NCBI GenBank assembly: GCA_963718875.1
Contig: OY970378.1
Coordinates: forward strand, 1,075,691 to 1,139,690
DNA length: 64,000 nt
Reading direction: 5' to 3'
DNA from: Candidatus Parcubacteria bacterium
GTDB lineage: Bacteria; Patescibacteriota; Saccharimonadia; UBA4664; JBIOIQ01
Part shown: positions 4,861 through 28,780 of the stretch, in pieces
How the letters are laid out: every line of letters starts with the position of its first letter
Position numbering within the stretch: position 1 is the first letter of the stretch
Notes under the pieces: model-generated
Told to the model about the DNA's origin: nothing
Seen by the model: the letters and a program-made list of their open reading frames with translations, nothing else
Databases searched by the model: none
Program-made: the position numbers and the translations under genes

Positions 4861-4863
4861 TTG

Positions 4864-5958
4864 CTAGTCCGCCGATATTGCCAGTTGATTGAGTCCCACC
4901 CCGTTTAACGAAACGCTATATTCACTTACTTTAGCTGGTTCAGTTAACTTACTAGCTTCAAACACTGGCATTAGGTAGCCTGCGATAGTCTTTGCCGCTA
5001 CGGGGGGGACTGAATTGCCGATTTGCCTACGAACTTCCGTGATTGAGCCTTCGAAGATAAAGTCGTCAGGATAACCGAAAAGTCTAGCACGTTCCCTGTT
5101 AGTCAAAGGCCGTGGTTCTTCGTAATGATACCCCCAGGTGCCACCTCCGCCTCCTGCGATTATTGTGGTAGAGGGCTTGTTTTTGTCTAACCGACGATAT
5201 ACGTGGCTGATCATACCCTTAACATAGTAAGGACTATCTTTAGGCAAAGAGGAAAAATTGCCACCGGCGGGGATCAGTTTTAGCATTTCTCTGGTCTTGT
5301 CCTTGATATTCTGGTGCTCGTTGTTGTGGGGTACTTTTTCAACCCCCTCTAATGCCTCTCCAGCCGTTACGAAATTTCCGGCTGTGTGAGTGGGATCGGG
5401 TTTCTCGAAATTGAAATCAATGTCATTCCTGATACCAACTATCAATACACGTTCTCTCAATTGTGGTGCTCCATAGTGGGCGAAATTGTAGAGATCGGCT
5501 CGTATTTTGTATCCAAGTCGTGCGAAGTCCTCAATAATCTGTCGTATTGCCTTACCGTCATTCGCCGTTAGGAGGCCTTTAACGTTTTCAGCCACAAAAA
5601 CTTTTGGCTTCTTAGTTTCAACCGCACGTACAAAATGCTTGTACAGGTTTCCTCGGTCTGTTTCTAAACCGCCCCGTTTCCAAATCATTGAAAAATCCTG
5701 ACAGGGGAAACCACCGGTGATAATATCTGCGTCCGGTACTTTATTGAAATCGATATCCGTAATGCTAGCGTGGGTGATATGGGGGCCGAAATTACGTTCG
5801 TAGGTCTTGCAGGACGAGGCTTCAAAATCGTTAGCCCATACAACTTCAAAACCCGCTAGCTTGAAGCCAAGATCGAGCCCACCACAACCGGAAAATAGAG
5901 ATAAAAGCTTAGGACGTTTGGAAATTTTAGTATTCTTATTTATCATTTTCATACTCAT
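4864..5958 (-). CDS. DNA (cytosine-5)-methyltransferase
   Basis: Motif I LFSGCGGLDLGF, motif IV GGFPCQDFS and the ENV motif. Confidence 0.85.
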   Translation of the reverse strand: MSMKMINKNTKISKRPKLLSLFSGCGGLDLGFKLAGFEVVWANDFEASSCKTYERNFGPHITHASITDIDFNKVPDADIITGGFPCQDFSMIWKRGGLETDRGNLYKHFVRAVETKKPKVFVAENVKGLLTANDGKAIRQIIEDFARLGYKIRADLYNFAHYGAPQLRERVLIVGIRNDIDFNFEKPDPTHTAGNFVTAGEALEGVEKVPHNNEHQNIKDKTREMLKLIPAGGNFSSLPKDSPYYVKGMISHVYRRLDKNKPSTTIIAGGGGGTWGYHYEEPRPLTNRERARLFGYPDDFIFEGSITEVRRQIGNSVPPVAAKTIAGYLMPVFEASKLTEPAKVSEYSVSLNGVGLNQLAISAD

Positions 5959-8276: not shown

Positions 8277-8334
8277 CTAGAGATCACTATTCAAAGCACT
8301 AACAATATTGTGTAATATATAAGGAGTAATGACT

Positions 8335-9954
8335 ATGCAAAGCCAAAATCTAAAATATTTCCTCTACGCTCGTAAGTCCTCCGAGGACGAGGACAGACAA
8401 ATTCAGTCAATCGACGACCAAGTTAATTGGTTAATACAAAAAGCCAATCAAACAGGAGTTGTTCTAAAGAAAAATCAGATCTTTACAGAGGCTAAATCGG
8501 CTAAGAAGCCGAATAATCGGCCCGTGTTCGCCGAAATGCTAGCCCGGATCGAAAAGGGCGAAGCAAATGCCCTACTAGTTTGGGACATTTCTCGCTTATC
8601 GAGAAACCCGATCGATAGTGCGGCGATACAATGGCTGCTCCAAGAAGGTAAGCTACGGTTAATCCATACGCACACACGAGAGTACCGCCCAGAGGATAAT
8701 ACGCTTCTATATAGCGTCGAGAGCGGTATGGCCAATCAGTACATTATCGAGTTACGTGCGAATACACAGCGAGGGATCAATAGTAAGCTTGAAAAGGGCT
8801 GGAAGCCTGGTTTAGCTCCCGTTGGCTACATAAACAACCCCGATCCCGACGAACGCAAGGGTGAAAAAACAATAATCCCCGATCCGGAGCGGTTCGATAT
8901 AGTGCGGAAAGCCTGGGATTTAATGCTTACCGGCAATTACAATCCCCGCCAAATACACCAAATAGCTACAGAGGAATGGCATTTAACTACCAAGGAGCGA
9001 AAAACGAAGCGTGGCAAGGTAGCGATTAGCCGCACGATCTCTCACAACGGCACATACCGTCTACTAACTAATATATTCTACGCAAAGGTAATTGATTATG
9101 GTGGCAAAATATATGAGGGGAGCCATAAGCCAATGATCACAATGGCGGAGTTTGACCGGGTACAAATGTTACTCGGAGCTAAGGGTCGCCCTCGCCCCCA
9201 GTCCCGTGAGCATTCTTATACGGGCAGCATTACCTGCGGCGAATGCTCGGCTCAAGTAACGGCCGAAACCAAGACCAAGTTCGTGAAAAAGACCGGTCAG
9301 CTCAAGGATTACGTCTATTACCGCTGTACCCACCGTAAGACCGGCGTGCCGTGCAAACAGCGGCCGATCCGCCTGGAAGACCTAGAGCCACAAATGGACG
9401 CACAACTACGGCAATTTACGATCCTACCGGTATTTCGGGACTGGGCATTAGAAAAGCTGAACCGGTCTAATGACCAAGAGATCGTAGATCGTACAAAAGT
9501 CCAAGAGTCGCTTACTAAGGCTCTGGACGACAATCAACAGCAGCTAGATAACCTGACTAAAATGCGTTACAGGGATATGATCGACGACGACGAGTTCAAA
9601 AAGGAAAAGAAGGCCCTCCAAACGGAGCTAGCTAGGCTTCAACAAGAGCGGGACGGCAATGAGGGGCGAGCTAGGAACTGGCTTAAGCTCACGGAGGATA
9701 CCTTCAAGTTCGCTTGCTACGCCCAACGATCGTTTATGTTTGGCGACGTTAGAACTAAGCGGGAAATCTTCGCCGCTCTCGGTAAGGGTGCGACGCTAAA
9801 AGACGGCGTGCTAACAATCACTCCTCATAAATGGTTTCAACCGATCGTCGAAAATTACGCCGAATTAGAAGCTGCGTATGAGGAGGTTAGAACTAAAAAA
9901 ACAGCCAATCTCAATCGAGAAATGGCTGTTTTGATAAATAATTGGGGCGAGTGA
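8335..9954 (+). CDS. large serine recombinase (integrase)
   Basis: N-terminal resolvase catalytic domain (YARKSSEDEDRQ, catalytic Ser), recombinase domain, Cys-rich zinc ribbon (CGEC...C) and C-terminal coiled coil. AAGGAG RBS. 3' end overlaps tRNA-His. Confidence 0.85.
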   Translation: MQSQNLKYFLYARKSSEDEDRQIQSIDDQVNWLIQKANQTGVVLKKNQIFTEAKSAKKPNNRPVFAEMLARIEKGEANALLVWDISRLSRNPIDSAAIQWLLQEGKLRLIHTHTREYRPEDNTLLYSVESGMANQYIIELRANTQRGINSKLEKGWKPGLAPVGYINNPDPDERKGEKTIIPDPERFDIVRKAWDLMLTGNYNPRQIHQIATEEWHLTTKERKTKRGKVAISRTISHNGTYRLLTNIFYAKVIDYGGKIYEGSHKPMITMAEFDRVQMLLGAKGRPRPQSREHSYTGSITCGECSAQVTAETKTKFVKKTGQLKDYVYYRCTHRKTGVPCKQRPIRLEDLEPQMDAQLRQFTILPVFRDWALEKLNRSNDQEIVDRTKVQESLTKALDDNQQQLDNLTKMRYRDMIDDDEFKKEKKALQTELARLQQERDGNEGRARNWLKLTEDTFKFACYAQRSFMFGDVRTKREIFAALGKGATLKDGVLTITPHKWFQPIVENYAELEAAYEEVRTKKTANLNREMAVLINNWGE

Positions 9955-10020
9955 TGGGGCTCGAACCCACGACATTCTGCTCCACAAGCAGACGCTCTAA
10001 CCAACTGAGCTACACCCGCC
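9943..10020 (-). tRNA. tRNA-His (GTG) with genomically encoded G-1 and CCA
   Basis: Manual fold: 7-bp acceptor stem with G-1:C73, D-arm TAGCTCAGTTGG, anticodon loop ttGTGga, T-arm GTGGGTTCGAGCCCCAT, CCA at 9943-9945. Confidence 0.9.
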
Positions 10021-10023
10021 TCG

Positions 10024-10287
10024 TTAACTAACGGCCTTCATAATACCGTCGCTTATTATTTTCTCAATATAATCCTTTCTCTTCCAGCGTTTAATTCTTC
10101 TTTCAGCATCTCTCGCTTCAGATAATGAGCCAAATTCTTGATGAAACACAAGCTTTAGCTCTCCCATTCGACTAGTACTTGGGGTACTTCCAGCAGAATG
10201 CTGGGAAATACGCCGATTAAGATTTGTGGTACTCCCGACGTAATACTTACCTGAACTTGAATATAAGATATAGAGATAGCTTTTCAT
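10024..10287 (-). CDS. GIY-YIG nuclease family protein (small stand-alone)
   Basis: YLYILYSSSGKYYVGSTTNLNRRISQH is the GIY-YIG motif. Confidence 0.75.
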   Translation of the reverse strand: MKSYLYILYSSSGKYYVGSTTNLNRRISQHSAGSTPSTSRMGELKLVFHQEFGSLSEARDAERRIKRWKRKDYIEKIISDGIMKAVS

Positions 10288-10784
10288 ATATTCCTAACCA
10301 AAGCCGACGCAAAGGTCGGCTCCCCGACAACTATAGCTCGTCGGGGCTGAGCTACAACCGCCATATAAGTTTCATTTGTATAAGTTTCGAATTACATTTG
10401 TACTTGACAGCATGAAAATTGAAAATTGATTAAATGATACTTGCATTCTGGTGGAGGCAATCCCGCAAGCGGGACGGCCCCCGAACTAATTTCAATTCGT
10501 TGTTTCAAATTCAAATCAGATCGGGTATATTTTAGAGCTCTTTCAAAATCCCTCCGTCCTGCAAACCCGTTTGTAGGGCAATCTACTGATTTTTTACTTC
10601 TCAAGGTAGCACTATGGCTATCTCTCAAACTAAGAAAATCACTATATTACTCCTAAAACGGGTTTTCGGATTTCGAATGGGTTTTGAAAGGGCTTTATTA
10701 CATTTTACCTGTAACCTATGACATTTGACACTTCTTCTAATGGCTAAAAGCCATGAGCAATCCGTCAGCTGACGGAGAGTCGAA

Positions 10785-10861
10785 TGGTGCCCCCGGTTGG
10801 ATTCGAACCAACGACCTTAGGCTTAGAAGTCCTCTGCTCTATCCAGCTGAGCTACAGGGGC
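10785..10861 (-). tRNA. tRNA-Arg (TCT), anticodon stem appears weakly paired
   Basis: Acceptor GCCCCTG/CGGGGGC, D-arm GCTCAGCTGGATAGAGC, T-arm GTTGGTTCGAATCCAAC, CCA encoded. Anticodon loop cTTCTaa gives TCT. Only 3 central Watson-Crick pairs in the anticodon stem by hand folding. Confidence 0.75.
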
Positions 10862-10908
10862 GCATTGTCAAGTATACTTTAATATTAGGCTTTATTAATG
10901 GATGTTGG

Positions 10909-11340
10909 TTATTGGGTGTTTTTGAGCTTGACTTGGTAAACAAACTTATCTACGTCATCTACGGGGATATTATTGACACCCGACAGTCTGCCAAAAGCTA
11001 GGTTACTCCACGATGCTTGTCCAATTTGGTAAATTTCCATCTCTTTCTTTTTGGCAAAAGCATAGCCATTCTCAAGTTGAACCCCTGCAGAGACTCGTTC
11101 CTCCAAAAGAATGATTAATTTATCGGTATTATCAATTTCGTCAAAATCTTTTTGGAGTTCTGCTTCGGGCAGCTTAACCCCTCCCAAGCTCCATCGCGCA
11201 TGCTCCAAAGCGCAAAACACAACGTGATCGGCTTTGCGTAAGGAAACCAGCAAATCTTCTATTGCAGCTCGGTAATCTGCAGTCACCCGACCATCGGGAT
11301 CTACTTTAGACGAGAACGGGATTGAAAGAAATATACGCAT
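10909..11340 (-). CDS. nucleoside 2-deoxyribosyltransferase-like protein
   Basis: MRIFLSIPFSS... start and overall pattern resemble the Nuc_deoxyrib_tr family. Start moved to internal ATG 11340 because the longer ORF would run toward tRNA-Gly. Confidence 0.45.
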   Translation of the reverse strand: MRIFLSIPFSSKVDPDGRVTADYRAAIEDLLVSLRKADHVVFCALEHARWSLGGVKLPEAELQKDFDEIDNTDKLIILLEERVSAGVQLENGYAFAKKKEMEIYQIGQASWSNLAFGRLSGVNNIPVDDVDKFVYQVKLKNTQ

Positions 11341-11568
11341 AATACCTGACTCTTTCTCTGCCAAAGTTTGTGTCCATTTTGTTGATATGGGCACAAACTT
11401 TGGAGCGGGTGGCGGGGATGTGGCTTGTGCCACCTTCCTGCGGTGCTCGGAAAGACCAAAAGCCAACTTTAATCTTTCCTGCGCTCCTCGTACACCGAAC
11501 CTAAAGGTTCGCTCACCACCACCCATTGTACCAAGAAAATAGCCCCAAACAAGCTGAGACTATTTTCT

Positions 11569-11643
11569 TGGAGCGGGTGGCGGGGATCGAACCCGCGTCT
11601 CCAGCTTGGAAGGCTAGCATAATAGCCACTATACGACACCCGC
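11569..11643 (-). tRNA. tRNA-Gly (TCC)
   Basis: Acceptor GCGGGTG/CACCCGC, anticodon loop cTTCCaa, T-arm GCGGGTTCGATCCCCGC, CCA encoded. Confidence 0.9.
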
Positions 11644-11803
11644 ATGCTTACTGATTATCCGAAGTATTGTAGCAGAGAAAGGCTTTAGCGCAAAGGCTTA
11701 CTTAGGGCCAATAAGTCTCGGGTCATAATTAATTTGACTTCCCTGTGCACAAGTGCTATAATTGTGTGACGATTTTTGGCAGTTCTTGTTTCGGTCAACT
11801 CCT

Positions 11804-12571
11804 ATGAAAGGCCACGCCATGCGTCGAGCACTTGTCTTTGTTGTCGTAATCGGGCTACTGACCGTAGCCTGCAGAAGCGACAAGGAAGCCCCTTCAACAT
11901 CTTTCCAGCAAGTAGCAGCCGCCGCCGAAGCGGCGGCTCCGGTCAGCACAACCGTCGTCACAACCACCGCCCCACCAGTGGTATCAACTACCATGGTTGC
12001 GCCAACGGCTACCACAGCCCGGCCGACAACCACGATGATGGCTACCACCACAACGGTTCGTCCATCACCTACCACCACCGTGCCAGTCGCCACAACAGCG
12101 GCGCCCGACATGTTCAGCTCCGAACGAGAGTTCGACAAGGTGCTGATTGGCGGGTCGGCGGTTCGCATTGGCCAGGACTTTGCGTCGATGCAAGGCCGGT
12201 TCAGCGATCTGGGATTTGGCCGTTGGCAGTCCCAGACTGCCTTCACTACCTTCGTGTCGGTGAGCGGCGGTAAGATCGTGGCCATCGTCAGCATCCAAGA
12301 CCATGGCCGCCACGCAGCAACCGTGACGGTGCCGGATTTCTACTACGGCATGCAGCTCGCTGAACTACGCATTTGGTACCCCGAGATGCAGTTCGACAAG
12401 TTCGATACCCAGCCTGCGCTGCGAAAGAACCTGCGTAACGGTAGTTTCTACGCCGTAGGAGGAGGTTGCACCACAGGAGGGGTCGACGTGGTGGCAATAG
12501 CCCTAACGGGTTTTCAATCCACTGCGGAACAGATGGTTCATCTCGGGGACTGCAACCCCGACAAGGACTGA
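11804..12571 (+). CDS. Thr/Pro/Ala-rich secreted lipoprotein, compositionally foreign (high GC)
   Basis: Signal peptide with lipobox-like LTVAC, long T/P/A-rich linker, C-terminal globular part. A sampled 60-mer is ~65% GC versus ~47% background. Confidence 0.55.
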   Translation: MKGHAMRRALVFVVVIGLLTVACRSDKEAPSTSFQQVAAAAEAAAPVSTTVVTTTAPPVVSTTMVAPTATTARPTTTMMATTTTVRPSPTTTVPVATTAAPDMFSSEREFDKVLIGGSAVRIGQDFASMQGRFSDLGFGRWQSQTAFTTFVSVSGGKIVAIVSIQDHGRHAATVTVPDFYYGMQLAELRIWYPEMQFDKFDTQPALRKNLRNGSFYAVGGGCTTGGVDVVAIALTGFQSTAEQMVHLGDCNPDKD

Positions 12572-12578
12572 TCCGAAG

Positions 12579-12624
12579 CCCCGAGGACGACGCAATTCGC
12601 GCGTCGTCCTCGGGGCAGTTTTTT
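12579..12624 (+). terminator. intrinsic terminator (perfect 15-bp GC stem plus T6)
   Basis: ccccgaggacgacgc...gcgtcgtcctcgggg followed by tttttt immediately after the high-GC lipoprotein gene. Confidence 0.6.
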
Positions 12625-12688
12625 ATTATAAAGTGCTTGTGCTTATTTTTGCTGCGTGGTATAACCACATTATAAGCGCCGTTTAAAA

Positions 12689-13927
12689 ATGAAATTTCGT
12701 TCAAAATATTGGTTACTGGCCGCAGCATTACTGATTAACTTTCTACCTCTTAACTTTGCTGGCAACAATACTGCACTAGCAGAAAGCAACATCTGTCCCC
12801 TAGCGGGTGACCCACCCATAATGAGTGCTTACAGAACTGCAGAACGTCCCAACCACAAGGGTCTTGATTTGGATGTTCCTGAAGGTACAGCAATTTATGC
12901 AGTTGAGAGCGGCAGCGTTGAAGCGCCTCCGTATGATGACGGTGGTTATGGCGTGTGGCTAATTTTGTCGAGTGGAAATTATACGTTTCGCTACGGGCAT
13001 ATTGGTCAAATAGTCAAAACCGGCTCAGTTAACGCTGGGGACGTTATTGCCTATTCCGACACTAGCGGGAATGCTTCTGCACCTCATCTGCACTGGGAAG
13101 TGCGTAACCCCGTGAACGATATTGATCCAACACCGTTTTGGAATTCTTGCACTGAGCCGGGAGGCGGAGGTGGATCCACTCCAACCGCTCCTCCAGTAAC
13201 TTCACCACCAACTACAGCACCTGTAATAAACCCTGTCCCCGTTACAAACCCTACTCCGGTAAGCTCGGATAGCAGCTGCCACGCCCAGGTCTTGCGCCAA
13301 GGTACCTCTAGCGACTGCGTGACCCACCTTCAGAACCACTTGAACGGCTATGGCTACGGTATTCCTACCACCGGTTATTTTGGTACTATTACTTTCAACT
13401 CAGTCTGTGACTTTCAAAACAAGCACGGCTTATCTCCGTGTGATGGTGTGGTAGGCCCAAACACTTGGAATGCTCTGCATAGCGGCTCTGGTGCGTCAGC
13501 GCCTGTTCAGACAACTCAACCATCGAATCCAACTGTAAGCTCAAACTCTGGGCAAATCGTAAACGAGTATAACGGGTTATGTTTAGATGTACCGGGAGCC
13601 GATTTTAGCAACATGGTTTTTGTGCAGCTGTACGGCTGCAATGGAACTGCTGCCCAAAGATGGACACTAGCATCGAATGGCTCGCTTCAAACAGCCAACA
13701 ACATGTGCTTGGACGTTCGAGATGGCGATACTAGCAATGGCAAGCGTGTGCAAATTTATTCTTGCCTAAATAACGCCAACCAACAATGGCAGCGGCGGTC
13801 AGACCAAACAATTCGGCCAAATATTAATACCAATAAATGCTTGGAGGATTACGGCTTTGGTACCGGTGACGGTGCAATAGTAGCTTTATGGGACTGTAAC
13901 GGTGGGAGTAACCAAAAATGGCGATGA
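12689..13927 (+). CDS. secreted M23 (LytM) peptidase with peptidoglycan-binding domain and C-terminal ricin-B (QxW) lectin domain
   Basis: Signal peptide. HKGLDLDVPEGTAIYAVESGSV...PHLHWEV is the M23 motif set. A PG_binding_1-like segment follows. QxW repeats: AAQRW, NQQWQ, NQKWR. Confidence 0.8.
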   Translation: MKFRSKYWLLAAALLINFLPLNFAGNNTALAESNICPLAGDPPIMSAYRTAERPNHKGLDLDVPEGTAIYAVESGSVEAPPYDDGGYGVWLILSSGNYTFRYGHIGQIVKTGSVNAGDVIAYSDTSGNASAPHLHWEVRNPVNDIDPTPFWNSCTEPGGGGGSTPTAPPVTSPPTTAPVINPVPVTNPTPVSSDSSCHAQVLRQGTSSDCVTHLQNHLNGYGYGIPTTGYFGTITFNSVCDFQNKHGLSPCDGVVGPNTWNALHSGSGASAPVQTTQPSNPTVSSNSGQIVNEYNGLCLDVPGADFSNMVFVQLYGCNGTAAQRWTLASNGSLQTANNMCLDVRDGDTSNGKRVQIYSCLNNANQQWQRRSDQTIRPNINTNKCLEDYGFGTGDGAIVALWDCNGGSNQKWR

Positions 13928-14029
13928 CAGAGGTTAACGTAAATGTGAATAAGCAAGCTAACAAAAGGTCAGGGGTGGCGGCGCAAAAACAGCACAAGCA
14001 GCAGCAACAATCAGCCAGGATCAAACAAG

Positions 14030-14611
14030 GTGCTTTTTTCGGCAATTAGCTTTAGCCCCAAAAGCCCACTTTTAATTGGCTTGGCGCTAGCAATCCTGGC
14101 CGCAGTAACATTTGTGGTGGTCAAAGCTGCAACTATAACAAGCTTAGAGGAGTCTGTACGACTTTCCAACGGCCAAGAAGTGCGTCTAGGTCAACCTACA
14201 GGTGAGCTTAAAACCGGCATTCATAAAGTTAACGACCAATTGTTCCAATATCCTAACAACAGGTTCAGGCCCATCGAAGCAATCATATATGCCGAGAATA
14301 ATGTAGTCAGCGCCATTCAAATCATAAAGCCAAGCAGTAACTCATTGGCCTTGAGCGGGGTCAAAGTAGGGGCGTCAGCATTAGAAATATCAGCCCGATT
14401 AAGGGGGAAGCTTGAGCCATTAGAGGCAAGATTGCTTAGTTTGAATCGCCGCGGCAACCAAGTCAATCAGTCTCGATCGGTAGCATACTTCTTAAAGCCT
14501 CCGTGCAGTACTAGTGAGCAGGTTACTACAATTACACTAGCTTTGAAAGACTATGCAACCAAGCTGGCTGCGCGGACAATACCTTCTGACTGTAATACGG
14601 AAACAGACTAG
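14030..14611 (+). CDS. hypothetical membrane-anchored protein
   Basis: N-terminal TM helix, no recognised motif. Confidence 0.4.
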   Translation: MLFSAISFSPKSPLLIGLALAILAAVTFVVVKAATITSLEESVRLSNGQEVRLGQPTGELKTGIHKVNDQLFQYPNNRFRPIEAIIYAENNVVSAIQIIKPSSNSLALSGVKVGASALEISARLRGKLEPLEARLLSLNRRGNQVNQSRSVAYFLKPPCSTSEQVTTITLALKDYATKLAARTIPSDCNTETD

Positions 14612-14626
14612 TCATTTTATACTGAG

Positions 14627-15130
14627 TTAGAGAGCTTGGCCGCCGGCATGGTCTGTCCAGTCTTTTAAAAACCAACTTGAAGACCACTTTTTATCAAGCC
14701 CTACACCAGTCATAATTTCGATTCCGTGTTTTTGACAGGTGTCCCATTCGCGAATTGTTTTGGCGTCAACTCTATCACCACCTTTTGTAAATATATGAGG
14801 TTTAATTTCATTGAGCGCTTGAATAACCGATAAATCCCCTTCAATTTCAAAAGGTACAACATAATCCACGCCTCTAAGTGAACTTACAATTAGACTGCGA
14901 GTAGCTAAATCCTGAAAAGGCTTGCCTTTCTTGGCGGTTAGAAAAGCGTCACCATTAACAATTACAACCAGTGTGTCACCATATTGTTTGCTTTCAACAA
15001 TACAGCTGATGTGTCCGGGGTGAATAGGGTCATAGCCACCACTCGTGGCTACTATTTTTCCTAACTGGGGGCGCAAAATTTTAAGCTCATCCATACTTAT
15101 AATTGGCGCACCGAAATGTGTATGTTGCAT
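14627..15130 (-). CDS. cytidylyltransferase-like nucleotidyltransferase (RfaE domain II / TagD-like)
   Basis: GGYDPIHPGH matches the HxGH nucleotidyltransferase signature. Confidence 0.6.
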   Translation of the reverse strand: MQHTHFGAPIISMDELKILRPQLGKIVATSGGYDPIHPGHISCIVESKQYGDTLVVIVNGDAFLTAKKGKPFQDLATRSLIVSSLRGVDYVVPFEIEGDLSVIQALNEIKPHIFTKGGDRVDAKTIREWDTCQKHGIEIMTGVGLDKKWSSSWFLKDWTDHAGGQAL

Positions 15131-15277
15131 AAATAATCTCGACTACTTAGTTCATTTTTGCATAAACCAATTTGTAAACCAAGCCACCAGGCTGTTTACA
15201 AATTGGAAAGCGAGGCTTTGAGCAAAAGCCAGAATAATTTCAGTATGAAATTGTTTAGACTGAAGCACAAAATGAGC

Positions 15278-15352
15278 TGGTCGGGGTGAAAGGACTCGAA
15301 CCTTCGGCCTCCTGCTCCCAAAGCAGGCGCGCTACCAACTGCGCCACACCCC
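15278..15352 (-). tRNA. tRNA-Pro (TGG)
   Basis: Acceptor CGGGGTG/CACCCCG, anticodon loop tTTGGGa gives TGG, T-arm GAAGGTTCGAGTCCTTTC, CCA encoded. Confidence 0.9.
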
Positions 15353-15585
15353 GTCCTCCAAGTTGAACTGCGGCCTACAGAATATAATTAATATTCTTTC
15401 AGCCTTCGCTCAACTTCTCGTCTACCCTCGCCAAACAGGCTGGTGCCTTAGTTCGGCTCGGGTTATACGCTCAAGCGATGCTACTATCGCTGCTCCTCTA
15501 AGTTTTGCAAAAAAATAACCCAATGCGGAGCTCGGTTGAACCTGATAATTATAATGTTTTTGAGAAGAGATAGCCATACATGACT

Positions 15586-15618
15586 CGACCCGGCCCCACT
15601 GGTGGTGGGGCCGGGTCG
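15586..15618 (-). terminator. GC-rich 13-bp hairpin downstream of the pup-like gene (actinobacterial-style terminator lacking a clear U-tract)
   Basis: cgacccggcccca...tggggccgggtcg, a perfect inverted repeat. Confidence 0.4.
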
Positions 15619-15695
15619 TACTAGCTGCCGACTACTTGGCAATGTCCGCCGAAGATAGATCTGGATCACCTCCTAACTCGCGGTCGAAGCTCCCA

Positions 15696-15887
15696 TTACT
15701 GGCCGCCCTTCTGGACGTAACTGCGAACGAATTCTTCGGCGTTGTCCTCCAACACCTCGTCGATCTCGTCCAAGAGCTCGTCGAGCTCGGCCTTGAGCTT
15801 GTCACCTTGCTTGGCTGGGAGGGTCGTGTCCACCACCTCGTCTGTTCGAGTGGTGGATTGCTTCCTTTTCTGTTCCCTTTCGGCCAT
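15696..15887 (-). CDS. pup: prokaryotic ubiquitin-like protein Pup homologue (C-terminal GGQ)
   Basis: 63 aa. ...LDELLDEIDEVLEDNAEEFVRSYVQKGGQ is nearly identical in pattern to actinobacterial Pup. GAGGAG RBS. High-GC composition. Confidence 0.8.
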   Translation of the reverse strand: MAEREQKRKQSTTRTDEVVDTTLPAKQGDKLKAELDELLDEIDEVLEDNAEEFVRSYVQKGGQ

Positions 15888-15925
15888 GGGCCGACTCCTC
15901 TCGGGATGCAGTAATCGGATGATTG

Positions 15926-15958
15926 TTGGATAGGCAAGCCGCTGACTTGCCTATCCAA
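15926..15958. promoter_or_regulatory. 33-bp palindrome TTGGATAGGCAAG-N7-CTTGCCTATCCAA upstream of pup (candidate operator)
   Basis: 13-bp perfect inverted repeat. The half-site TTGGATAGG/CCTATCCA recurs upstream of another high-GC island gene at 54473..54492. Confidence 0.3.
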
Positions 15959-16105
15959 CTTCCCGCTCCTACTTAGTGCCTGCGCGCGACTTAGACAGCC
16001 ACAGCTGCGGCTGTCTCGGTTGGGTTGTCAGTGGGCATGGCCACCTCCGTAAATAGACGGATCCTTGATTACCCTTTTATAATACTCATGTAGTCAAGCA
16101 TTACC

Positions 16106-16139
16106 ACAAAAAAACCACCCAAAGTTGGTGGTTTTTTTA
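16106..16139. terminator. bidirectional intrinsic terminator (A7-hairpin-T7)
   Basis: aaaaaaaccaccc aaag ttggtggttttttt directly after the hup stop. Confidence 0.6.
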
Positions 16140-16158
16140 AAGTTTTGACGCAAAGAGA

Positions 16159-16431
16159 TTAGCGGACGATTTCTTTGAGTCGCTTACCCGCTCTAAAACG
16201 AGGCATGGGCATTTCAGGAATCCGAATTTCTGCACCAGTTTGCGGATTTACCCCGCGACGGGCTGCCCGTTTGCCGAGATCAAAAGTGCCAAATCCGGTA
16301 ACCGATACTTTTTCGCCTTTTTTAACAGTACGTCCTACAATTGAAACGAAGGTCGATAAAACCGTTTGAACTTGGCGCTTGGTCATCTTGGTCTCGCCGG
16401 CAAGTGTTTCAATTAGTTGTTGTTTTGTCAT
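16159..16431 (-). CDS. hup: HU family DNA-binding protein
   Basis: Classic HU sequence (GFGTF...RAARRGVNPQTG...). Confidence 0.9.
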   Translation of the reverse strand: MTKQQLIETLAGETKMTKRQVQTVLSTFVSIVGRTVKKGEKVSVTGFGTFDLGKRAARRGVNPQTGAEIRIPEMPMPRFRAGKRLKEIVR

Positions 16432-16580: not shown

Positions 16581-17180
16581 TTAATCCTTAAGAATACCTG
16601 AGACTTTAAGTGCTTTAACAGCAGACAATGCCGAGACCCAAGCATCAAAGCGAGGATTGTGATGTAAATTTGGAACATCAACAATTTGCTCGGCCACATA
16701 CCTATAGCGGACAGCCAAGGGTTTAACGCCAATCATAATAAACATTGAGGCAAGATCTAGCAATGGGAATGAATGGTCCCAATAGCGCTCCTCTAAGTCA
16801 TCGTCTTGGCAGTTTACGAGAAAGCGTGCCTCCACAGGATAGCCATTGTCGGTTAACATATAGTCGGACTGTTCTTTGGCAACTTTGTACCATTCCCAAA
16901 AATCATCGCGCATAGCTCGTGAGGTACGGTGGGTTTCAGGAAAATTTTCTAATACCGGTAAAACATTCTTTTTAACCCAAGGGTCAAGCTCGCCTTCGAC
17001 TGGACAGCGGGCGTAAAATTCGTCTACTACAGTGCCGTCCATTTTTATGACCACCGCACCCACGGCAAATGCTTTACCGTGCAAACCATTGCTTTCCACG
17101 TCGATCGAAAGCAATTTCGTTTCAGGTGTTATGGGTAAGGCAGGCTGGTCAGGTTCAATTTTCAATTCATCAATTTTCAC
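16581..17180 (-). CDS. DEDDh 3'-5' exonuclease family protein
   Basis: LSIDVESNG (Exo I D-x-E) and H...NPRFDA (Exo III) motifs. Confidence 0.65.
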   Translation of the reverse strand: MKIDELKIEPDQPALPITPETKLLSIDVESNGLHGKAFAVGAVVIKMDGTVVDEFYARCPVEGELDPWVKKNVLPVLENFPETHRTSRAMRDDFWEWYKVAKEQSDYMLTDNGYPVEARFLVNCQDDDLEERYWDHSFPLLDLASMFIMIGVKPLAVRYRYVAEQIVDVPNLHHNPRFDAWVSALSAVKALKVSGILKD

Positions 17181-17182
17181 TT

Positions 17183-17539
17183 TTATTTCCTTTTTTCGTC
17201 AACGTTTTCATTCTGTTCAGTATACCAGTCGGGGTTGGTGATGGTTAAAAGTTTAAGATGATTGCCAATTAGGTAGCTAGTGCTGCCGGAAGGTATAACG
17301 GCCACGTCACCAGGCAAAATGACGTCTTCTTTCCCATCTATGACTATCTGGGCGCTGCCTTCTAATACGTAATAAAACTCGTCACAAACGGTATTTTTTG
17401 CAGATCCATCAGCGGGGACTCGCCCATGAATCTCTTGGTAAGATAAGCCCATGCTAATACCGGGCAAGGCATAGTCATATAATTTTGACACTCCATTGTC
17501 TAGCTCTTTAACTCTGGTCTGTTTTCGAATAACAGTCAT
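17183..17539 (-). CDS. cupin domain protein
   Basis: Small beta-barrel pattern GDVAVIPSGSTSYLIGN. Confidence 0.6.
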   Translation of the reverse strand: MTVIRKQTRVKELDNGVSKLYDYALPGISMGLSYQEIHGRVPADGSAKNTVCDEFYYVLEGSAQIVIDGKEDVILPGDVAVIPSGSTSYLIGNHLKLLTITNPDWYTEQNENVDEKRK

Positions 17540-18081
17540 TGATGCAGCTTTCTTTTTAATTCCATTACAAGCTCATCAAAAGGTTTATCATATAAAAAGT
17601 GGCCGCGGTCATTCATTTCGTAATATTCGGTTTGCAACTGTTCGTGAACGAAGCGCGGTTCGTCGATGGGAATGTAAGGGTCGTCTGTGGAAGCGAACTG
17701 AATAATCCAACCTTGGTTGGATCGAATTGCTTCCCAATTCCAGGGTCGGTTAAAGTAACCGCTTTGCTTTTCGCCCTCGTCATCTAGGTCGGTGTGACTG
17801 GCTCCTATTAAAACTGATCCAAGAATGCGGTGGGTTTCGGCAAAGCGCATGGCGGCGATTGCTCCCGAAGAATGGCCAACTAGCACAGTGTTTTGGTCGG
17901 CCTTAAGCTCGTCCTGCAAGTAAGGGATCCAATATTGCTCACGGGCATGGACGGCGTCAGGGAAGTCGGGGCTAATCGCGGCAATGCCGGCATCTTTCAA
18001 TTTACGAACCACATCGGGCTGCCAATTATCTTGGCCGCTGGCGCCACCATTGCCGTGAATTAAAATTACTCGAATGCTCAT
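17536..18081 (-). CDS. alpha/beta serine hydrolase (YdeN/RBBP9-like)
   Basis: ILIHGNGG...GHSSGA nucleophile elbow. Start set at MSIRVILIHG (ATG 18081). Confidence 0.6.
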   Translation of the reverse strand: MSIRVILIHGNGGASGQDNWQPDVVRKLKDAGIAAISPDFPDAVHAREQYWIPYLQDELKADQNTVLVGHSSGAIAAMRFAETHRILGSVLIGASHTDLDDEGEKQSGYFNRPWNWEAIRSNQGWIIQFASTDDPYIPIDEPRFVHEQLQTEYYEMNDRGHFLYDKPFDELVMELKRKLHQ

Positions 18082-18100
18082 TTCTTTGTTTCCGATTCTT

Positions 18101-18160
18101 CTCCAAGGATACAAGAAACAAGAAGCAAGTTACAAACAACTTTCAAATTACAATATTCGG
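18101..18160. repeat. left arm of inverted-repeat element flanking the four-helix-bundle gene (CTCCAA..ATACAAGAAACAAG..ACAAACA..TTTCAAA)
   Basis: Homologous to 36415..36472 and inverted relative to 18533..18567. Confidence 0.5.
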
Positions 18161-18170
18161 AATCCACAGC

Positions 18171-18530
18171 CTAGCCCTGACTCTTAATAATGATGGCTGA
18201 AAGTATGTTTTTTAATTCGTTTGCCTCATTTTTTAATGTTTTAACCGAGATTCCATCGTTGGCTTCTTCAAGAAGCTCAAGCCAATGGAGGGTTTCTTTG
18301 GCTTCTTTACGAGCGGTTTTGAGCCTCAAGAGGAAATCTTTCTTGCCTAAAGCGTCATTTGCTTCTCGATAGTTTGCTCCGACGGAACCTGCAGACCCTA
18401 CTAGTTGGCCACAGATGCGACTATTTATTGAGTCCTTTGATACTGAACGGCACACTCGAACAACTTCACGGCCGAAAGCTGTCGTTCTGGCCTCTAGATC
18501 ATACTTTTGAACTGTTTCGGAATTGTTCAT
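18171..18530 (-). CDS. four-helix-bundle protein ('23S rRNA intervening sequence protein' / Avd-like family)
   Basis: ERTTAFGREVVRVC...GSAGSVGANYREA...RKEAKETLHWLEL pattern of the TIGR02436-type family. Confidence 0.75.
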   Translation of the reverse strand: MNNSETVQKYDLEARTTAFGREVVRVCRSVSKDSINSRICGQLVGSAGSVGANYREANDALGKKDFLLRLKTARKEAKETLHWLELLEEANDGISVKTLKNEANELKNILSAIIIKSQG

Positions 18531-18580: not shown

Positions 18581-20098
18581 CTACTTAGCAAATTCCATAG
18601 CACGGGTTTCACGAATAACATTCACTTTGATCGTTCCGGGGTATTTGAGAGTGGCTTCAATTTTAGTAGCCATGTCGCGGGCAAGCTTGATAGCGGAGAG
18701 GTCATCGATTTGCTCAGGGCGGACTATAACGCGAATTTCACGGCCGGCGCTGATGGCGTAAGCCTTGTTGATGCCAGGAAAGGTCATTGCGATGTTTTCG
18801 AGATCGGTCATACGCTTAGCGTAATTTTCGAGTGTGTCGCCTCGGGCACCAGGACGGCCGGCGCTGAGAGCATCGACAACCCGCACCACTAGAGCTTCAA
18901 CCGTGGTGGCTTCGATATCGTCATGATGGGCCTCGGCTGCGTGAGCGATTGTTTCATCCATACCATATTTACGGATGAGCATGCCCGAAATATGGTGATG
19001 GTTGCCTTCAATTTCATGGGTCATGGCTTTACCAATGTCGTGTAGTAGCGCAGCGGTTTTACAAATACGCACGTCGGCACCCAGTTCGGCAGCGATCATG
19101 CCGGCCATGTGGCCCATTTCCACAGAGTGACCCAACACATTTTGACTAAAACTGGTGCGGAACTTAAGTTGGCCTACTATTTGAACGAGCTCTGGTGGAA
19201 TACCGACTACGCCAACTTCTTTAATAGCCATTTCGCCGGCGTCTTTAATTATTTTATCAATTTCTTCTTCGGCTTTTGCAACTACCTCTTCGATCCTGGC
19301 TGGGTGGACTCGACCGTCGGCCAATAACTTTTCGATTGCTACCCTAGCCACCTGTCGGCGGATGGGGTCAAAACTGGAAAGCACAATTACGCCGGGTGTT
19401 TCGTCGATTAGTACATCGACTCCGGTAGCGCGCTCAATGGCTTGGATGTTACGGCCTTCTTTCCCTATGATCCGGCCTTTCATTTCATCACTAGGGATGG
19501 CAACAGTGGTAACTGTACGTTCGCTGGTTTGGTCGGAAGCAACCCTTTCCATAGCGCTTGCCACAATCATGCGAGCTTGCTCGTCGGCGGTTTCTTTGGC
19601 GGTGTCTTTAAGCTTATCAACCAACTTTACAAGATCAGTTTTAATGTCTCGCTCTGTCATGGCCATGAGCTTGTCTTTGGCTTCGTCTTTACTAAGCTTG
19701 GCAATTTTTTCGAGTGTTTCTTGTTGCTTGGTGCGCATGGAACGAATATCGTTTTTTAACTCCTCGAGCTCGGTTTCACTTTTTCGTAAAGCCTCGCCAC
19801 GCCTATCAAGCTCTTCAATTTTGCGGTCGAGGGTTGTTTCGCGGCTGCTAACGCGATTTTCGATTTCAGTAAGCTGTTTGCGCCGTTCACCATCTTCGCG
19901 TTTGCTTTCCTCGCTGGCTCGTAATGCCTGGGTCTTGGCCTCGAGAACAGTTTCTTTGGCTTTGGCTTCGGCATCGGACAGAATTTTAGCAGCCTTAGAG
20001 TCGGCTGAGTCGGTTTTGCGCTTGGCTATTACCATGTTGGCACCAAAACCAGCCCCACCGCCTAGCACGAGTGCGGCAATTACAAATAAAGCTAGCAT
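18581..20098 (-). CDS. rny: ribonuclease Y
   Basis: N-terminal TM helix, coiled coil, KH domain, HD domain (LLHDIGKA, HH...). Confidence 0.9.
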   Translation of the reverse strand: MLALFVIAALVLGGGAGFGANMVIAKRKTDSADSKAAKILSDAEAKAKETVLEAKTQALRASEESKREDGERRKQLTEIENRVSSRETTLDRKIEELDRRGEALRKSETELEELKNDIRSMRTKQQETLEKIAKLSKDEAKDKLMAMTERDIKTDLVKLVDKLKDTAKETADEQARMIVASAMERVASDQTSERTVTTVAIPSDEMKGRIIGKEGRNIQAIERATGVDVLIDETPGVIVLSSFDPIRRQVARVAIEKLLADGRVHPARIEEVVAKAEEEIDKIIKDAGEMAIKEVGVVGIPPELVQIVGQLKFRTSFSQNVLGHSVEMGHMAGMIAAELGADVRICKTAALLHDIGKAMTHEIEGNHHHISGMLIRKYGMDETIAHAAEAHHDDIEATTVEALVVRVVDALSAGRPGARGDTLENYAKRMTDLENIAMTFPGINKAYAISAGREIRVIVRPEQIDDLSAIKLARDMATKIEATLKYPGTIKVNVIRETRAMEFAK

Positions 20099-24923: not shown

Positions 24924-26945
24924 ATGCGAATATCTGATGATGCGCTCAAGAAAATATTAACGGCTTCGGGGCGAGTAAAGGCCGAGGACCTGGCTGAGGC
25001 CGATAAAAATCATCAGCAGACGCAAGAACCACTTCTTGCCACTATTATAAAGCGCAATTTGATTAGTGAAAAAGATCTGACTCAATTGTATGCCAAAAGC
25101 ATTGATGTTCCGTTTGTTGAGCTCGCTGGGATTAAAATACCTCATGAAGTTCTCATAAAAATACCTGAGCGCATTGCCCGTAAATACCAGGCTGTGTTGT
25201 TTGGTTCAATTGACAACCAAATGCAACTAGCAATGGCCGACCCAGAAGATTTCCAAGCTGCCGACTTTATTCAAAAGCAAACAGTGGGGGGGGTAAAAAT
25301 ATACATTGCCACTCCGGCTGATATTGCCGGAGCCCTGGATCAGTATCAAGCGAATATGGATAGTGAGATCAGCAAGGCTATTCAAGACTCGGCAGTGCCT
25401 GATCAAGACGAACGAAAAGAGCCAGAGGTTAGCGCAAAAGACATTGCTGAAGATGCCCCTATCGCTAAAACAGTCAACGTGATGGTGGAATATGCCATGC
25501 GATCAAGGGCGTCTGATATCCACATTGAACCACACGAAAACATTGTGCAGGTGCGCTATCGCATTGATGGCGTTTTGCGAGAGTCAATGACGTTGCCTCG
25601 CAATATTCTGCCTGCCGTTGTAAGTAGAATCAAAATCCTGGCTAATCTTAAGATCGATGAGCATCGCATCCCACAAGATGGTCGGTTCAAATTTAGTATG
25701 GGGAGCAAAACCGTAGCCCTGCGAGTTTCAACCTTACCAGTAATGGACGGGGAGAAGGTTGTGATGCGTTTGCTAGATGAGTCAAGTCGAGCCCTAACCC
25801 TGGAAGAACTGGGTTTTTCCGGCCTTTCACTAGATATTATTAACCGTAACCTTCACAAACCCCACGGTATGACGCTTGTTACGGGGCCAACCGGGTCAGG
25901 AAAAAGCACAACACTTTATAGTGTTTTAAATGTACTTAACACAGCGGGAGTTAATATCTCGACAGTCGAAGACCCAGTAGAATACCGCATACAAGGCGTT
26001 AATCAAACCCAAGTTAACCCCAAAGCCGGTATGACTTTTGTAAGCGGTTTACGGGCTTTGTTGAGGCAAGACCCCAACATTATTATGGTGGGTGAAATTC
26101 GGGATGGCGAAACGGCTGATCTGGCCGTTCAAGCCGCTTTAACCGGCCACTTAGTGTTATCTACACTGCACACGAATAATGCGGCCACCTCCCTCCCCCG
26201 TCTGCTCGACATGGGAATTGAACCGTTTTTGATTGCGTCGACTGTTAACACTGTAATCGGGCAACGTCTGGTGCGTAAGCTTTGCCCTGCCTGTAGAGTA
26301 CCTTATGTTCCGCAAGGAAAGGAGCTTGAAGATATAAAAAAGGATTTTGATGTTGATGTGGCATTGAAGCATTACTTGGAACAAATTAACGTTCCTCCGG
26401 TTGTACCTGCGGCATCAGCTGCACCAGCCATAACTGTACCCGCACTTGCTCCTATTACTTCCCAAGGAGGTGTAGTCAGCGGCACTAAGGTTATCCATCC
26501 CGTGCGTGATATAGAAATGGATAAATCAATTTTAGATAAAATTGCCGCTGACCCAAACATTATAGACCGCAGCGTGGGCGCTGCTTCTATGAAACCAGTT
26601 ATAGCAGCCTCTCATGAAGACTTGACGACAACTCTGCCAGATGCTCCTGCTTTGACGACTGTTCCTATTCCAACAACTGTCAACTCTGAGGAGCTGCAAA
26701 TTTTTAAAGCAGGTCCAGGATGTGCTGAGTGTGGACAGGGCAGTTATCAAGGCCGAATGGGGATTTATGAAGTTTTGGAGATCAACGAAGGCATTAGTAA
26801 AATGATTGTGTCTCACGCCACGAGCGAGGAAATACAGGCTGCTGCCATTTCAAATGGTATGCTTACAATGCAACAAGACGGCTTTTTAAAAGTACTCAAA
26901 GGGCTAACTACCATAGAAGAAATATTGAGGGTTACGCGTGAATAA
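24924..26945 (+). CDS. pilB: type IV pilus assembly ATPase PilB (GspE family) with C-terminal extension
   Basis: T2SE N-terminal domain, Walker A GPTGSGKST, tetracysteine CPAC. Confidence 0.9.
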   Translation: MRISDDALKKILTASGRVKAEDLAEADKNHQQTQEPLLATIIKRNLISEKDLTQLYAKSIDVPFVELAGIKIPHEVLIKIPERIARKYQAVLFGSIDNQMQLAMADPEDFQAADFIQKQTVGGVKIYIATPADIAGALDQYQANMDSEISKAIQDSAVPDQDERKEPEVSAKDIAEDAPIAKTVNVMVEYAMRSRASDIHIEPHENIVQVRYRIDGVLRESMTLPRNILPAVVSRIKILANLKIDEHRIPQDGRFKFSMGSKTVALRVSTLPVMDGEKVVMRLLDESSRALTLEELGFSGLSLDIINRNLHKPHGMTLVTGPTGSGKSTTLYSVLNVLNTAGVNISTVEDPVEYRIQGVNQTQVNPKAGMTFVSGLRALLRQDPNIIMVGEIRDGETADLAVQAALTGHLVLSTLHTNNAATSLPRLLDMGIEPFLIASTVNTVIGQRLVRKLCPACRVPYVPQGKELEDIKKDFDVDVALKHYLEQINVPPVVPAASAAPAITVPALAPITSQGGVVSGTKVIHPVRDIEMDKSILDKIAADPNIIDRSVGAASMKPVIAASHEDLTTTLPDAPALTTVPIPTTVNSEELQIFKAGPGCAECGQGSYQGRMGIYEVLEINEGISKMIVSHATSEEIQAAAISNGMLTMQQDGFLKVLKGLTTIEEILRVTRE

Positions 26946-27001
26946 GAAAAAGATGAGCTTGTTATTGCTTATGCTGTCAGATCACAGAAAAGAAAAATAT
27001 T

Positions 27002-28231: not shown

Positions 28232-28257
28232 GTAAAATGCTTGTGTTTTTATGAAGA

Positions 28258-28286
28258 TTGCAATATAGTAAATTTCAGTATATTAA
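28258..28286 (+). promoter_or_regulatory. candidate sigma70-type promoter for the major pilin (TTGCAA-17-TATTAA)
   Basis: Hexamers read by eye. AAGGAG RBS follows. Confidence 0.3.
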
Positions 28287-28318
28287 AAGTAATTATATGC
28301 AAGGAGTGAGCACTTAGC

Positions 28319-28726
28319 ATGAAAAGTATTTTAAAGAAGAGTGGTGGGTTTACCCTCCTAGAGCTTCTGATCGTCATCGTCATCATCGGCATTTTAGCCG
28401 TTTTAATTGTACCAAACCTAACAGCTGGACCAAAACGAGCCCGTGACTCTCAACGTAAGAGCGATATGCGCAACGTTAAGACTGCCCTTGAGACCTATTT
28501 CAACGATAACAACGTCTATCCATCAGCAGCCAACTATGCAGGGTTGACTTCGGTTCTAGTGCCTGGCTTTATTAAAGCCATGCCAACCGACCCCAAAGCC
28601 GGTAACGCTGCCTATACTTACACATCAGCTTCACCTTATTCAACCTACAGTATAACGGCTACTTGTGAAGTTGCCACCGATCCTAAATGTCCCGGCGGTG
28701 TCCATACTGTTACCAGCGTCAACTAA
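28319..28726 (+). CDS. pilA: type IV major pilin (prepilin, G/FTLLE cleavage-methylation motif)
   Basis: KKSGGFTLLELLIVIVIIGILA N-terminus. Confidence 0.85.
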   Translation: MKSILKKSGGFTLLELLIVIVIIGILAVLIVPNLTAGPKRARDSQRKSDMRNVKTALETYFNDNNVYPSAANYAGLTSVLVPGFIKAMPTDPKAGNAAYTYTSASPYSTYSITATCEVATDPKCPGGVHTVTSVN

Positions 28727-28754
28727 CGACTAGAAACGTCAAAGTTAGAATAAA

Positions 28755-28780
28755 AAGCGGCTTAACAGCCGCTTTTTATA
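28755..28780 (+). terminator. intrinsic terminator after the major pilin
   Basis: aagcggct taac agccgctt followed by tttt. Confidence 0.65.

Follow-up and report, generated by a model that had tools for sequence, protein, structure and literature searches.

Why would an episymbiont carry a gene for Pup, the prokaryotic ubiquitin-like protein, when the genes for the enzymes that attach and process Pup are nowhere near it? Pupylation is usually viewed as a self-contained actinobacterial pathway. We examined a stretch of 64,000 nucleotides from contig OY970378.1 (assembly GCA_963718875.1), referred to below as the window; all feature coordinates are window positions. The window contains an intact, stand-alone and expressed-looking pup gene in a member of the Saccharimonadia, the TM7 lineage of the Candidate Phyla Radiation (CPR). 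The gene occupies a conserved site with the order HU, promoter-like motif, pup, hairpin, tRNA-Pro. We asked whether this gene is a genuine part of the genome, where it came from, and what it might do there.

Identity and setting of the pup gene

The pup gene lies on the minus strand at 15696-15887 and translates to MAEREQKRKQSTTRTDEVVDTTLPAKQGDKLKAELDELLDEIDEVLEDNAEEFVRSYVQKGGQ, which ends in ...DEIDEVLEDNAEEFVRSYVQKGGQ (last five residues QKGGQ). The product scores 73.8 bits against PF05639, the Pfam Pup family (E 2.2e-20, cut-off 27), and 67.8 bits against TIGR03687, the NCBIfam equivalog for the Pup C-terminus (cut-off 41.45). It aligns over its full length with Mycobacterium tuberculosis Pup from the Mpa, PafA and Dop complexes in PDB entries 7px9, 3m9d, 4bjr and 7oxy, and residues 25-63 align without gaps to M. 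tuberculosis Pup in 3m91, 3m9d, 7px9, 7oxy and 4bjr. In actinobacteria, PafA/Dop and the Mpa coiled coil bind helices that form in the C-terminal part of Pup; when Pup ends in GGQ, Dop must act on it before ligation (PMC8223512). This conserved segment is present in the window Pup, and both its length (63 residues) and its QKGGQ end fall within the family definition of 50-90 residues with a C-terminal G-[EQ] signature (PMC2588565). The last 38 residues, KQGDKLKAELDELLDEIDEVLEDNAEEFVRSYVQKGGQ, are the same in the window Pup and in the Acidimicrobiia loci L005 and L006; the peptides specific to the epibiont Pup, TTRTDEVVDTTLPAK, are N-terminal. An initial annotation of this DNA had recognized Pup by its hallmark C-terminus, and the profile matches and the alignment to M. 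tuberculosis Pup confirm that assignment. By all sequence criteria, the product of the open reading frame (ORF) is a typical Pup protein, with a putative capacity for covalent attachment to target-protein lysines.

The same annotation had reported no Dop, PafA or proteasome gene nearby, and our searches agree. We did not find Dop, PafA, Mpa, PrcA or PrcB in the 64-kb window, using Pfam on nine large ORFs plus pup and tblastn with Acidimicrobiia queries. PF03136 matched none of these ten ORFs. With seven Acidimicrobiia Dop sequences, Dop_L001 and a partial PafA as queries, nothing above noise appeared in the window or in the related Saccharimonadia loci L165, L166 and L170; the same held in L171, L172 and L177 for part of this query set. 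For the Mpa/ARC ATPase and PrcA/PrcB, no tblastn match nearby was better than E 0.004, a value reached by a 37-residue AAA-like stretch (36124-36234). Thus, the arrangement that marks a Pup-proteasome locus, with pup linked to dop or pafA and with Mpa/ARC and PrcA/PrcB nearby, was not found within the window.

The genome is absent from the GTDB representatives, and we placed it using the RNase Y gene (18581-20098). Its named relatives at 70-90% identity are Candidatus Saccharimonadia, Saccharimonadales or Saccharibacteria, with two metagenome-assembled genome entries labelled otherwise. The Pup, HU and RNase Y proteins are recorded together on one contig of 1,189,924 bp. The window also encodes the type IV pilus proteins PilB, PilC and PilM, ComEC, glycogen metabolism genes and a restriction-modification cluster; the window offers no rRNA gene for a direct placement. 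The RNase Y relatives and the gene content (pili, ComEC) indicate a CPR (TM7) genome, as the initial annotation had surmised.

The features of the locus are as follows.

15278..15353, minus strand: tRNA-Pro (UGG), conserved downstream neighbour of pup (ARAGORN, Rfam).
15560..16075, no strand: compositionally foreign block of ~520 bp, 57-58% GC, holding the leader, pup and the 3' hairpin (GC profile).
15586..15618, minus strand: 3' GC hairpin with a perfect 14-bp stem (15586-15599 / 15605-15618) and without a U-tract (inverted repeat I2, fold).
15696..15887, minus strand: pup coding sequence, 63 amino acids, GGQ end (ORF list, PF05639, TIGR03687, alignment to M. tuberculosis Pup structures, GC content at third codon positions).
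15895..15902, minus strand: Shine-Dalgarno sequence GAGAGGAG, with AGGAG 7 nt before the ATG (read from the sequence).
15925..15959, minus strand: 5' leader hairpin 2 with a perfect 14-bp stem (15925-15938 / 15946-15959; inverted repeat I3).
15991..16038, minus strand: putatively coding upstream ORF of 15 amino acids (MPTDNPTETAAAVAV) with a GGAGG ribosome-binding site (RBS), overlapping leader hairpin 1 (15993-16016; read from the sequence, inverted repeat I9).
16076..16101, minus strand: conserved promoter-like region, ATGCTTGACT (16092-16101) then TATTATAAA, of AT-rich native composition (32.5% GC; shared 10-mer, alignments).
16108-16138, minus strand: intrinsic terminator of HU (inverted repeat I5 and fold).
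16159..16431, minus strand: HU (Bac_DNA_binding) gene, conserved upstream neighbour of pup (Pfam).

The exact 10-mer ATGCTTGACT occurs once in the window, and among 178 fetched loci it was found upstream of pup in L165-L169 and L177, in one unrelated match, and nowhere else. Motif and DNA comparisons with relatives cover L165 and L177, and the pattern TTTTTGTG..ATGCTTGACT..GTAT upstream of pup is common to these two loci and the window. A sigma-70 scan of the minus strand gave no canonical promoter for pup. We call the motif promoter-like only, because the conserved TTGACT lies just ~8 nt from the TATAAT-like box.

The pup leader folds with a minimum free energy of -61.1 kcal/mol (z = -4.19 vs shuffled sequence), and the 3' hairpin has a z of -3.1 on the same comparison. 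Of the cassette parts named in the initial annotation, the GAGGAG RBS, the upstream palindrome and the downstream GC hairpin are all present. The role given to the hairpin did not hold up: no T-run follows its stem and a terminator scan made no call there, so its function as a terminator is unproven. In L165 and L177, hairpins followed by U-rich tracts occupy the equivalent position. The place equivalent to the 15-residue upstream ORF holds a 22-residue ORF in L177 and an 89-residue orphan ORF (60% GC, no Pfam match) in L165. The upstream ORF could be a leader peptide or a remnant of a second cassette gene.

The pup gene and its leader stand out by composition. GC content is 58.1% at 15560-15695, 56.8% at 15696-15887 and 56.9% at 15888-16075, compared with 44.4% and 32.5% in the immediate flanks. 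The GC content of pup at third codon positions (GC3) is 0.766 vs 0.432 +/- 0.045 for 28 window genes, which is 7 standard deviations higher. At its edges the block meets native motifs that relatives also have, upstream the promoter motif and downstream the tRNA-Pro promoter-like TATAATTATCAGGT (15540-15554). The ~500-bp GC-rich block of the initial annotation is therefore real, whereas its description of the genome as low in GC needs correcting to moderate, since the whole window has 46.1% GC. An imperfect 16-nt direct repeat (14/16, A-rich; 15508-15523 / 16107-16122) flanks the promoter-plus-pup segment, and its downstream copy resembles the 3' half of the HU terminator. This repeat could be an insertion scar or chance, and we claim no target-site duplication.

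The HU-pup locus in related Saccharimonadia

The GC content of the ~520-bp block changes abruptly on either side, as one would expect if an actinobacterial read or contig had been joined into a CPR genome, and the initial annotation had offered a chimeric assembly as one explanation. We found an independent Logan assembly (ERR12037361) with a 4,534-bp contig encoding RNase Y, 23S-IVP (IVP), a hydrolase, a cupin, a 199-residue ORF, HU and Pup. This contig extends ~390 bp beyond pup into tRNA-Pro, so both GC junctions are covered. Saccharimonadia contigs that come from other samples and sources have homologous HU-pup loci, and the block is only 74-79% DNA-identical to any sampled actinobacterial pup, within the ORF only. 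Because a second assembly crosses both junctions and other samples contain HU-pup loci, the block is not an assembly error, and a chimera or contamination is effectively refuted.

We found pup downstream of HU in three further Saccharimonadia lineages from other samples. L165-L169 are Joint Genome Institute (JGI) contigs of up to 872 kb, with RNase Y 75% identical to that of the window and the order RNase Y-cupin-S51-YmdB-HU-PadR-ORF89-Pup. JGI contig 3300071358 (9,134 bp, RNase Y 90% identical) reads RNase Y-hydrolase-cupin-193aa-HU-Pup according to its annotation only, with a 68-residue Pup assigned to PF05639. The Logan contig L177 reads IVP-YmdB-HU-Pup-hairpin-tRNA-Pro, the order seen in the window, and a second Logan contig encodes the same Pup protein. 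In the 9-kb JGI contig and in L177, pup lies directly downstream of HU. Every pup copy with readable DNA has an intact ORF and an RBS. RNase Y and HU identities sort these loci into clade A (84-90% identity; the window, L170, L171, L172 and the 9-kb JGI contig) and clade B (L165 and L177), and pup is found in both clades.

These results indicate a Pup-encoding lineage with a conserved HU-pup locus and not the one-off recent accident that the initial annotation had implied. As the alternative to a recent acquisition or chimera, it had pictured a lineage that itself encodes Pup, with a Pup-proteasome locus elsewhere and uniform GC. The lineage does encode Pup, but a Pup-proteasome locus was not found within the searched region and the GC content is not uniform.

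The interval between RNase Y and HU (window 16581-18530) varies in comparison with L170, L171, L172 and L165: 23S-IVP, Ser_hydrolase, cupin, YmdB and the 193/199-residue orphan come and go. The whole RNase Y-HU neighbourhood is fluid.

The two clade B loci allowed us to examine selection on pup. L165 and L177 share ~70 nt of promoter and leader. Their last 38 pup codons differ by ~15.5 synonymous changes, a synonymous divergence (dS) of about 1.9 that is saturated, and by no amino acid. All nine amino acid differences between the two proteins fall in the disordered N-terminal part. Promoter and leader sequence is common to the two genes, as are derived N-terminal residues, so they diverged inside the Saccharimonadia; 38 C-terminal residues unchanged despite saturated synonymous sites indicate that selection kept the gene there. 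Strong purifying selection falls, at least in clade B, on the C-terminal half that docks Mpa, PafA and Dop in actinobacteria. We are thus fairly confident that pup is retained by selection in Saccharimonadia.

Origin and history of the site

We traced the source of the gene by protein and DNA comparison. The best of 6,331 database homologues of the window Pup are 89-94% identical at the amino acid level and are unnamed or belong to Acidimicrobiales/Actinomycetota. In a GTDB search with one genome per species, the best 80 loci considered were all from Acidimicrobiia or other Actinomycetota, with a top identity of 92%. The closest loci read Mpa-Dop-Pup-EndoVII (L001), Dop-Pup-EndoVII (L004 and L178), or Mpa, Dop, Pup, PrcB, PrcA, PafA (L176); in L003, the 38 nt before pup are the 3' end of dop. 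All the actinobacterial loci we examined have pup immediately after dop, with mpa alongside. Transfer from an actinobacterium is supported because Acidimicrobiia are the source of all the closest Pups, which are encoded in Mpa-Dop-Pup loci.

At the DNA level, the window pup is 74-79% identical to sampled actinobacterial pup genes over the whole gene. This similarity is restricted to the ORF plus about 14 nt of RBS (blastn, word size 7, window 15200-16300 vs 84 loci), and the match to Acidimicrobiia dop-pup junctions begins only at the Shine-Dalgarno sequence. Given this modest identity and its confinement to the ORF and RBS, the donor was an unsampled member of the Acidimicrobiia Pup subgroup. 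The GC3 of pup (0.77) falls in the donor range of 0.63-0.89. That this is a real gene of actinobacterial origin is close to certain in our judgment. The initial annotation had proposed an Actinobacteria-type Pup from a high-GC source and a BLAST comparison of the protein and flanks; the comparison upholds the proposal for the protein, and leaves the flanks beyond the RBS with no DNA match.

We also looked for remnants of a donor locus and for a vector. Searches with Acidimicrobiia Dop, Mpa, PrcA, PrcB, PafA and EndoVII (tblastn) and with blastn recovered no dop tail and no EndoVII fragment, and donor-locus remnants were rejected. A phage vector was rejected as the source as well, with no match in INPHARED and three IMG/VR contigs at only 45-57% identity. 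Those contigs (L173-L175), classed as viral, encode Pup homologues unrelated to the window allele and are probably actinobacterial prophage regions or misclassified host DNA. The run accessions of L003 (SRR22742742), which has the most similar Acidimicrobiia Pup of the 63-residue type, and of L171 (SRR22742740), a clade A locus with RNase Y 88% identical, are neighbours, which hints that donor-like Acidimicrobiia and relatives of the epibiont share a habitat.

The interval between HU and tRNA-Pro differs among close relatives. It holds pup in the window (15354-16158), ORFs of 100 and 85 residues at 56-57% GC in L172 (9960-11150), and a 63-residue ORF in L170 (12532-13197). The promoter and leader in front of ORF85 of L172 (TTGACAGCGAAGCGTATAAT...GAGCACCATGAGG) are homologous to those before pup in L177 and L165. 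Because a replacement ORF has a pup-type promoter and leader, we regard the interval as a site where small genes vary under a conserved promoter. L165 ORF89, L172 ORF100 and ORF85, and L170 ORF63 show no significant mutual similarity and no Pfam match. Further afield, a metagenome scan with RNase Y recovered 80 loci at 45-63% identity, which had no pup and no synteny beyond RNase Y.

A neighbour-joining tree of Pup proteins joins L165 and L177 as sisters (467/500 bootstraps) and groups the window with the 63-residue Acidimicrobiia type (L003, L004); an exclusive three-member CPR clade appeared in just 42/500 replicates. Composition also differs among the copies. The GC3 excess of pup over its neighbours is +0.34 in the window, where the non-coding flanks are GC-rich, and ~+0.13 in L165. 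In L177 the excess is ~+0.14 (0.585 vs 0.33-0.53 for three neighbouring genes) and the flanks are native and AT-rich. We read the pup locus as old in this Saccharimonadia group and the window allele as more recently captured or replaced. The high GC3, the GC-rich flanks and the 63-residue indel type shared with Acidimicrobiia contigs mark the window copy as the more recent allele and suggest repeated capture of host alleles, plausibly through DNA uptake, as the window contains ComEC and type IV pilus genes. An alternative history, in which pup was gained once, long ago, and ameliorated unevenly, is compatible with a tree that rests on 64 residues.

Several other features of the window touch on gene exchange. 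The pilus genes PilB (T2SSE), PilC (T2SSF) and PilM and ComEC lie at 24924-32412 and 52510-53943; such machinery serves host attachment and DNA uptake and could explain how host DNA was captured. The Pro/Gly/Arg/His tRNA array spans 560 bp in L170 (13198-13757) and ~5.4 kb in the window (8329-15353 region), where inserted genes split it. A large serine recombinase (8329-9954, Resolvase and Zn_ribbon_recom) ends within tRNA-His (9943-10019), and the array beside the pup site looks like an integration hotspot. Inside the split array, a 412-residue protein (12689-13927, plus strand) combines a signal-peptide-like N-terminus with Peptidase_M23, PG_binding_1 and a ricin-type lectin; from this domain content, it is plausibly a secreted cell-wall hydrolase directed against the host. 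The restriction-modification cluster (1919-5958, minus strand) comprises a Z1-domain protein, an NgoFVII-type endonuclease and a C-5 cytosine methylase.

Possible roles of a stand-alone Pup and related systems

Cultured Saccharibacteria have actinobacterial hosts (PMC8406219; PMC10031880; PMC11659515). The reading we favour, possible if somewhat short of probable, is that the window Pup is a host mimic that acts on the pupylation system of an actinobacterial host. The epibiont would make Pup and deliver it into the host or expose it to the host. Host Dop would then deamidate the GGQ end and host PafA would conjugate the product; both enzymes would be expected to accept the epibiont Pup because its sequence matches the host type. 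Alternatively, free epibiont Pup may occupy Mpa coiled coils as a competitor. Either route would shift pupylation-dependent proteolysis in the host. Amino-acid recycling under starvation has been proposed for the Pup-proteasome system, and the benefit to an auxotrophic epibiont might be more protein turnover with release of amino acids, or else a blunted host stress response.

We put forward a fuller model more tentatively. The Saccharimonadia clade might use captured host Pup as an effector that is conjugated by host Dop/PafA or saturates Mpa, reprogramming host proteasomal turnover to the benefit of the epibiont. The protein would pass possibly through the CPR type IV secretion system (T4SS) or the contact zone; a relaxase-less T4SS is found widely across the CPR, and Saccharibacteria require it for epibiotic growth (bioRxiv 10.1101/2025.01.22.634366). 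The HU-tRNA-Pro interval would then serve as a cassette position for repeated capture of host-matched alleles, keeping the mimic compatible with the current host.

Several points weigh against host mimicry. L170 and L172, although close relatives, have no pup between HU and tRNA-Pro, which means that some strains can do without it; there the site is filled by small, unrelated ORFs (55-60% GC) and may be no more than an insertion hotspot. Selection was measured between L165 and L177 and not directly on the window copy, and the Pup tree was built on about 64 residues. The partner search covered 64 kb of a 1.19-Mb genome plus related loci of 2 to 21 kb, and a dop/pafA/mpa set elsewhere is possible. 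The window Pup has no signal peptide and its delivery route is purely proposed. Finally, we infer Acidimicrobiia as the host from the ancestry of the gene only.

The scope of the partner search bears most directly on endogenous pupylation, in which PafA and Dop, perhaps with Mpa or a proteasome, would be encoded elsewhere in the genome and an unlinked pup would tag the epibiont's own proteins. The visible part is about 5% of the genome, complete systems occur sporadically outside Actinobacteria (PMC2588565), and purifying selection on the half that binds the enzymes and Mpa is exactly what such a system would give. We nevertheless regard it as unlikely. The dop gene directly before pup and the mpa gene beside it were constant features of the actinobacterial loci, and no trace of partner genes appeared in the window or the related Saccharimonadia loci. 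This Pup is also of a specific Acidimicrobiia type, with no dop tail alongside. A full-text literature search returned no relevant paper combining pupylation, Pup or PafA with Saccharibacteria, Patescibacteria or CPR and none linking Saccharibacteria or CPR with the proteasome, and a large survey of Saccharibacteria genomes (PMC11659515) does not mention Pup or the proteasome. A pupylation-independent role inside the epibiont seems a little less improbable. Acidic and disordered, the protein might, for example, bind a different AAA+ machine or a nucleoid protein as an adaptor or regulator and be retained solely for that role; the conservation of pup beside HU with a promoter-like motif and leader in several lineages fits this idea, as does the missing secretion signal; the selection we see does not by itself identify its target. 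A new partner, for which we have no candidate, would be expected to relax or redirect constraint, yet the conserved residues are those of the donor clade and include the GGQ end, which is relevant only to Dop/PafA chemistry.

The gene might instead be a neutral passenger: host DNA taken up by a competent epibiont, inserted at a hotspot between HU and the tRNA array, functionless and decaying. The unameliorated window copy (GC3 0.77) with its GC-rich flanks could be read this way, and so could the unrelated small GC-rich ORFs in the same interval of L170 and L172, the insertions that fill the neighbouring tRNA array, the abutting serine recombinase and the presence of ComEC. This explanation seems quite improbable, however, as it must account for a shared position of pup in four lineages of two clades, an intact ORF and RBS in every readable copy, and no amino acid change over 38 codons between L165 and L177 despite saturated synonymous divergence. 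The L177 copy, partly ameliorated and set in native AT-rich flanks, is evidently long resident and still intact.

How CPR epibionts manipulate their hosts is little understood, and the pup locus speaks to this field. If host mimicry is correct, it would be a first candidate for bacterium-on-bacterium mimicry of a protein-degradation tag. It would offer a sequence-based pointer to Acidimicrobiia as hosts of an environmental Saccharimonadia clade and a small effector hypothesis, testable with a 63-residue peptide and purified Dop, PafA and Mpa. Should the protein turn out not to be an effector, the locus still records gene flow from host to epibiont and a site where small genes vary under a conserved promoter. 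A modifier-only Pup locus should surprise specialists in pupylation and in CPR bacteria alike.

We compared the window Pup to known Pup systems. It shares family, length, disordered N-terminus, C-terminal helix segment and GGQ end with actinobacterial Pup (M. tuberculosis Rv2111c and the Acidimicrobiia subgroup), and the 89-94% identity to Acidimicrobiia Pup includes a final 38 residues the same as in L005 and L006. Unlike actinobacterial pup, the gene lacks an upstream dop as well as nearby mpa, prcBA and pafA genes in the searched window, and it resides in a roughly 1.2-Mb CPR episymbiont genome at an HU/tRNA-Pro site with its own promoter-like motif and structured leader. Pup conjugation systems consisting of Pup and PafA-family enzymes occur sporadically in Nitrospirae, Verrucomicrobia, Planctomycetes and Deltaproteobacteria (Iyer et al. 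2008, PMC2588565). Like those systems, the window locus places Pup in a non-actinobacterial lineage, presumably via lateral transfer; unlike them, it contains the modifier alone, without PafA-family enzymes in the searched region. The arginine deiminase system of Saccharibacteria is an acquired gene set proposed to shape the relationship between host and epibiont (PMC8764695), and it resembles the pup locus as a horizontal gain by an epiparasitic Saccharibacterium. Whereas arginine deiminase is a complete pathway working in the epibiont, pup is a single substrate-like component that needs partner enzymes.

Some parasites of eukaryotes carry the protein-tagging modifier of their host, as in virus-encoded ubiquitin. 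The present case differs in pairing one bacterium with another, in involving the unrelated Pup system, and in that we infer both delivery and use by the host. By analogy, the Saccharimonadia locus would resemble such modifier mimicry in that a parasite has its host's modifier, lacks the enzymes for conjugation and would depend on host machinery.

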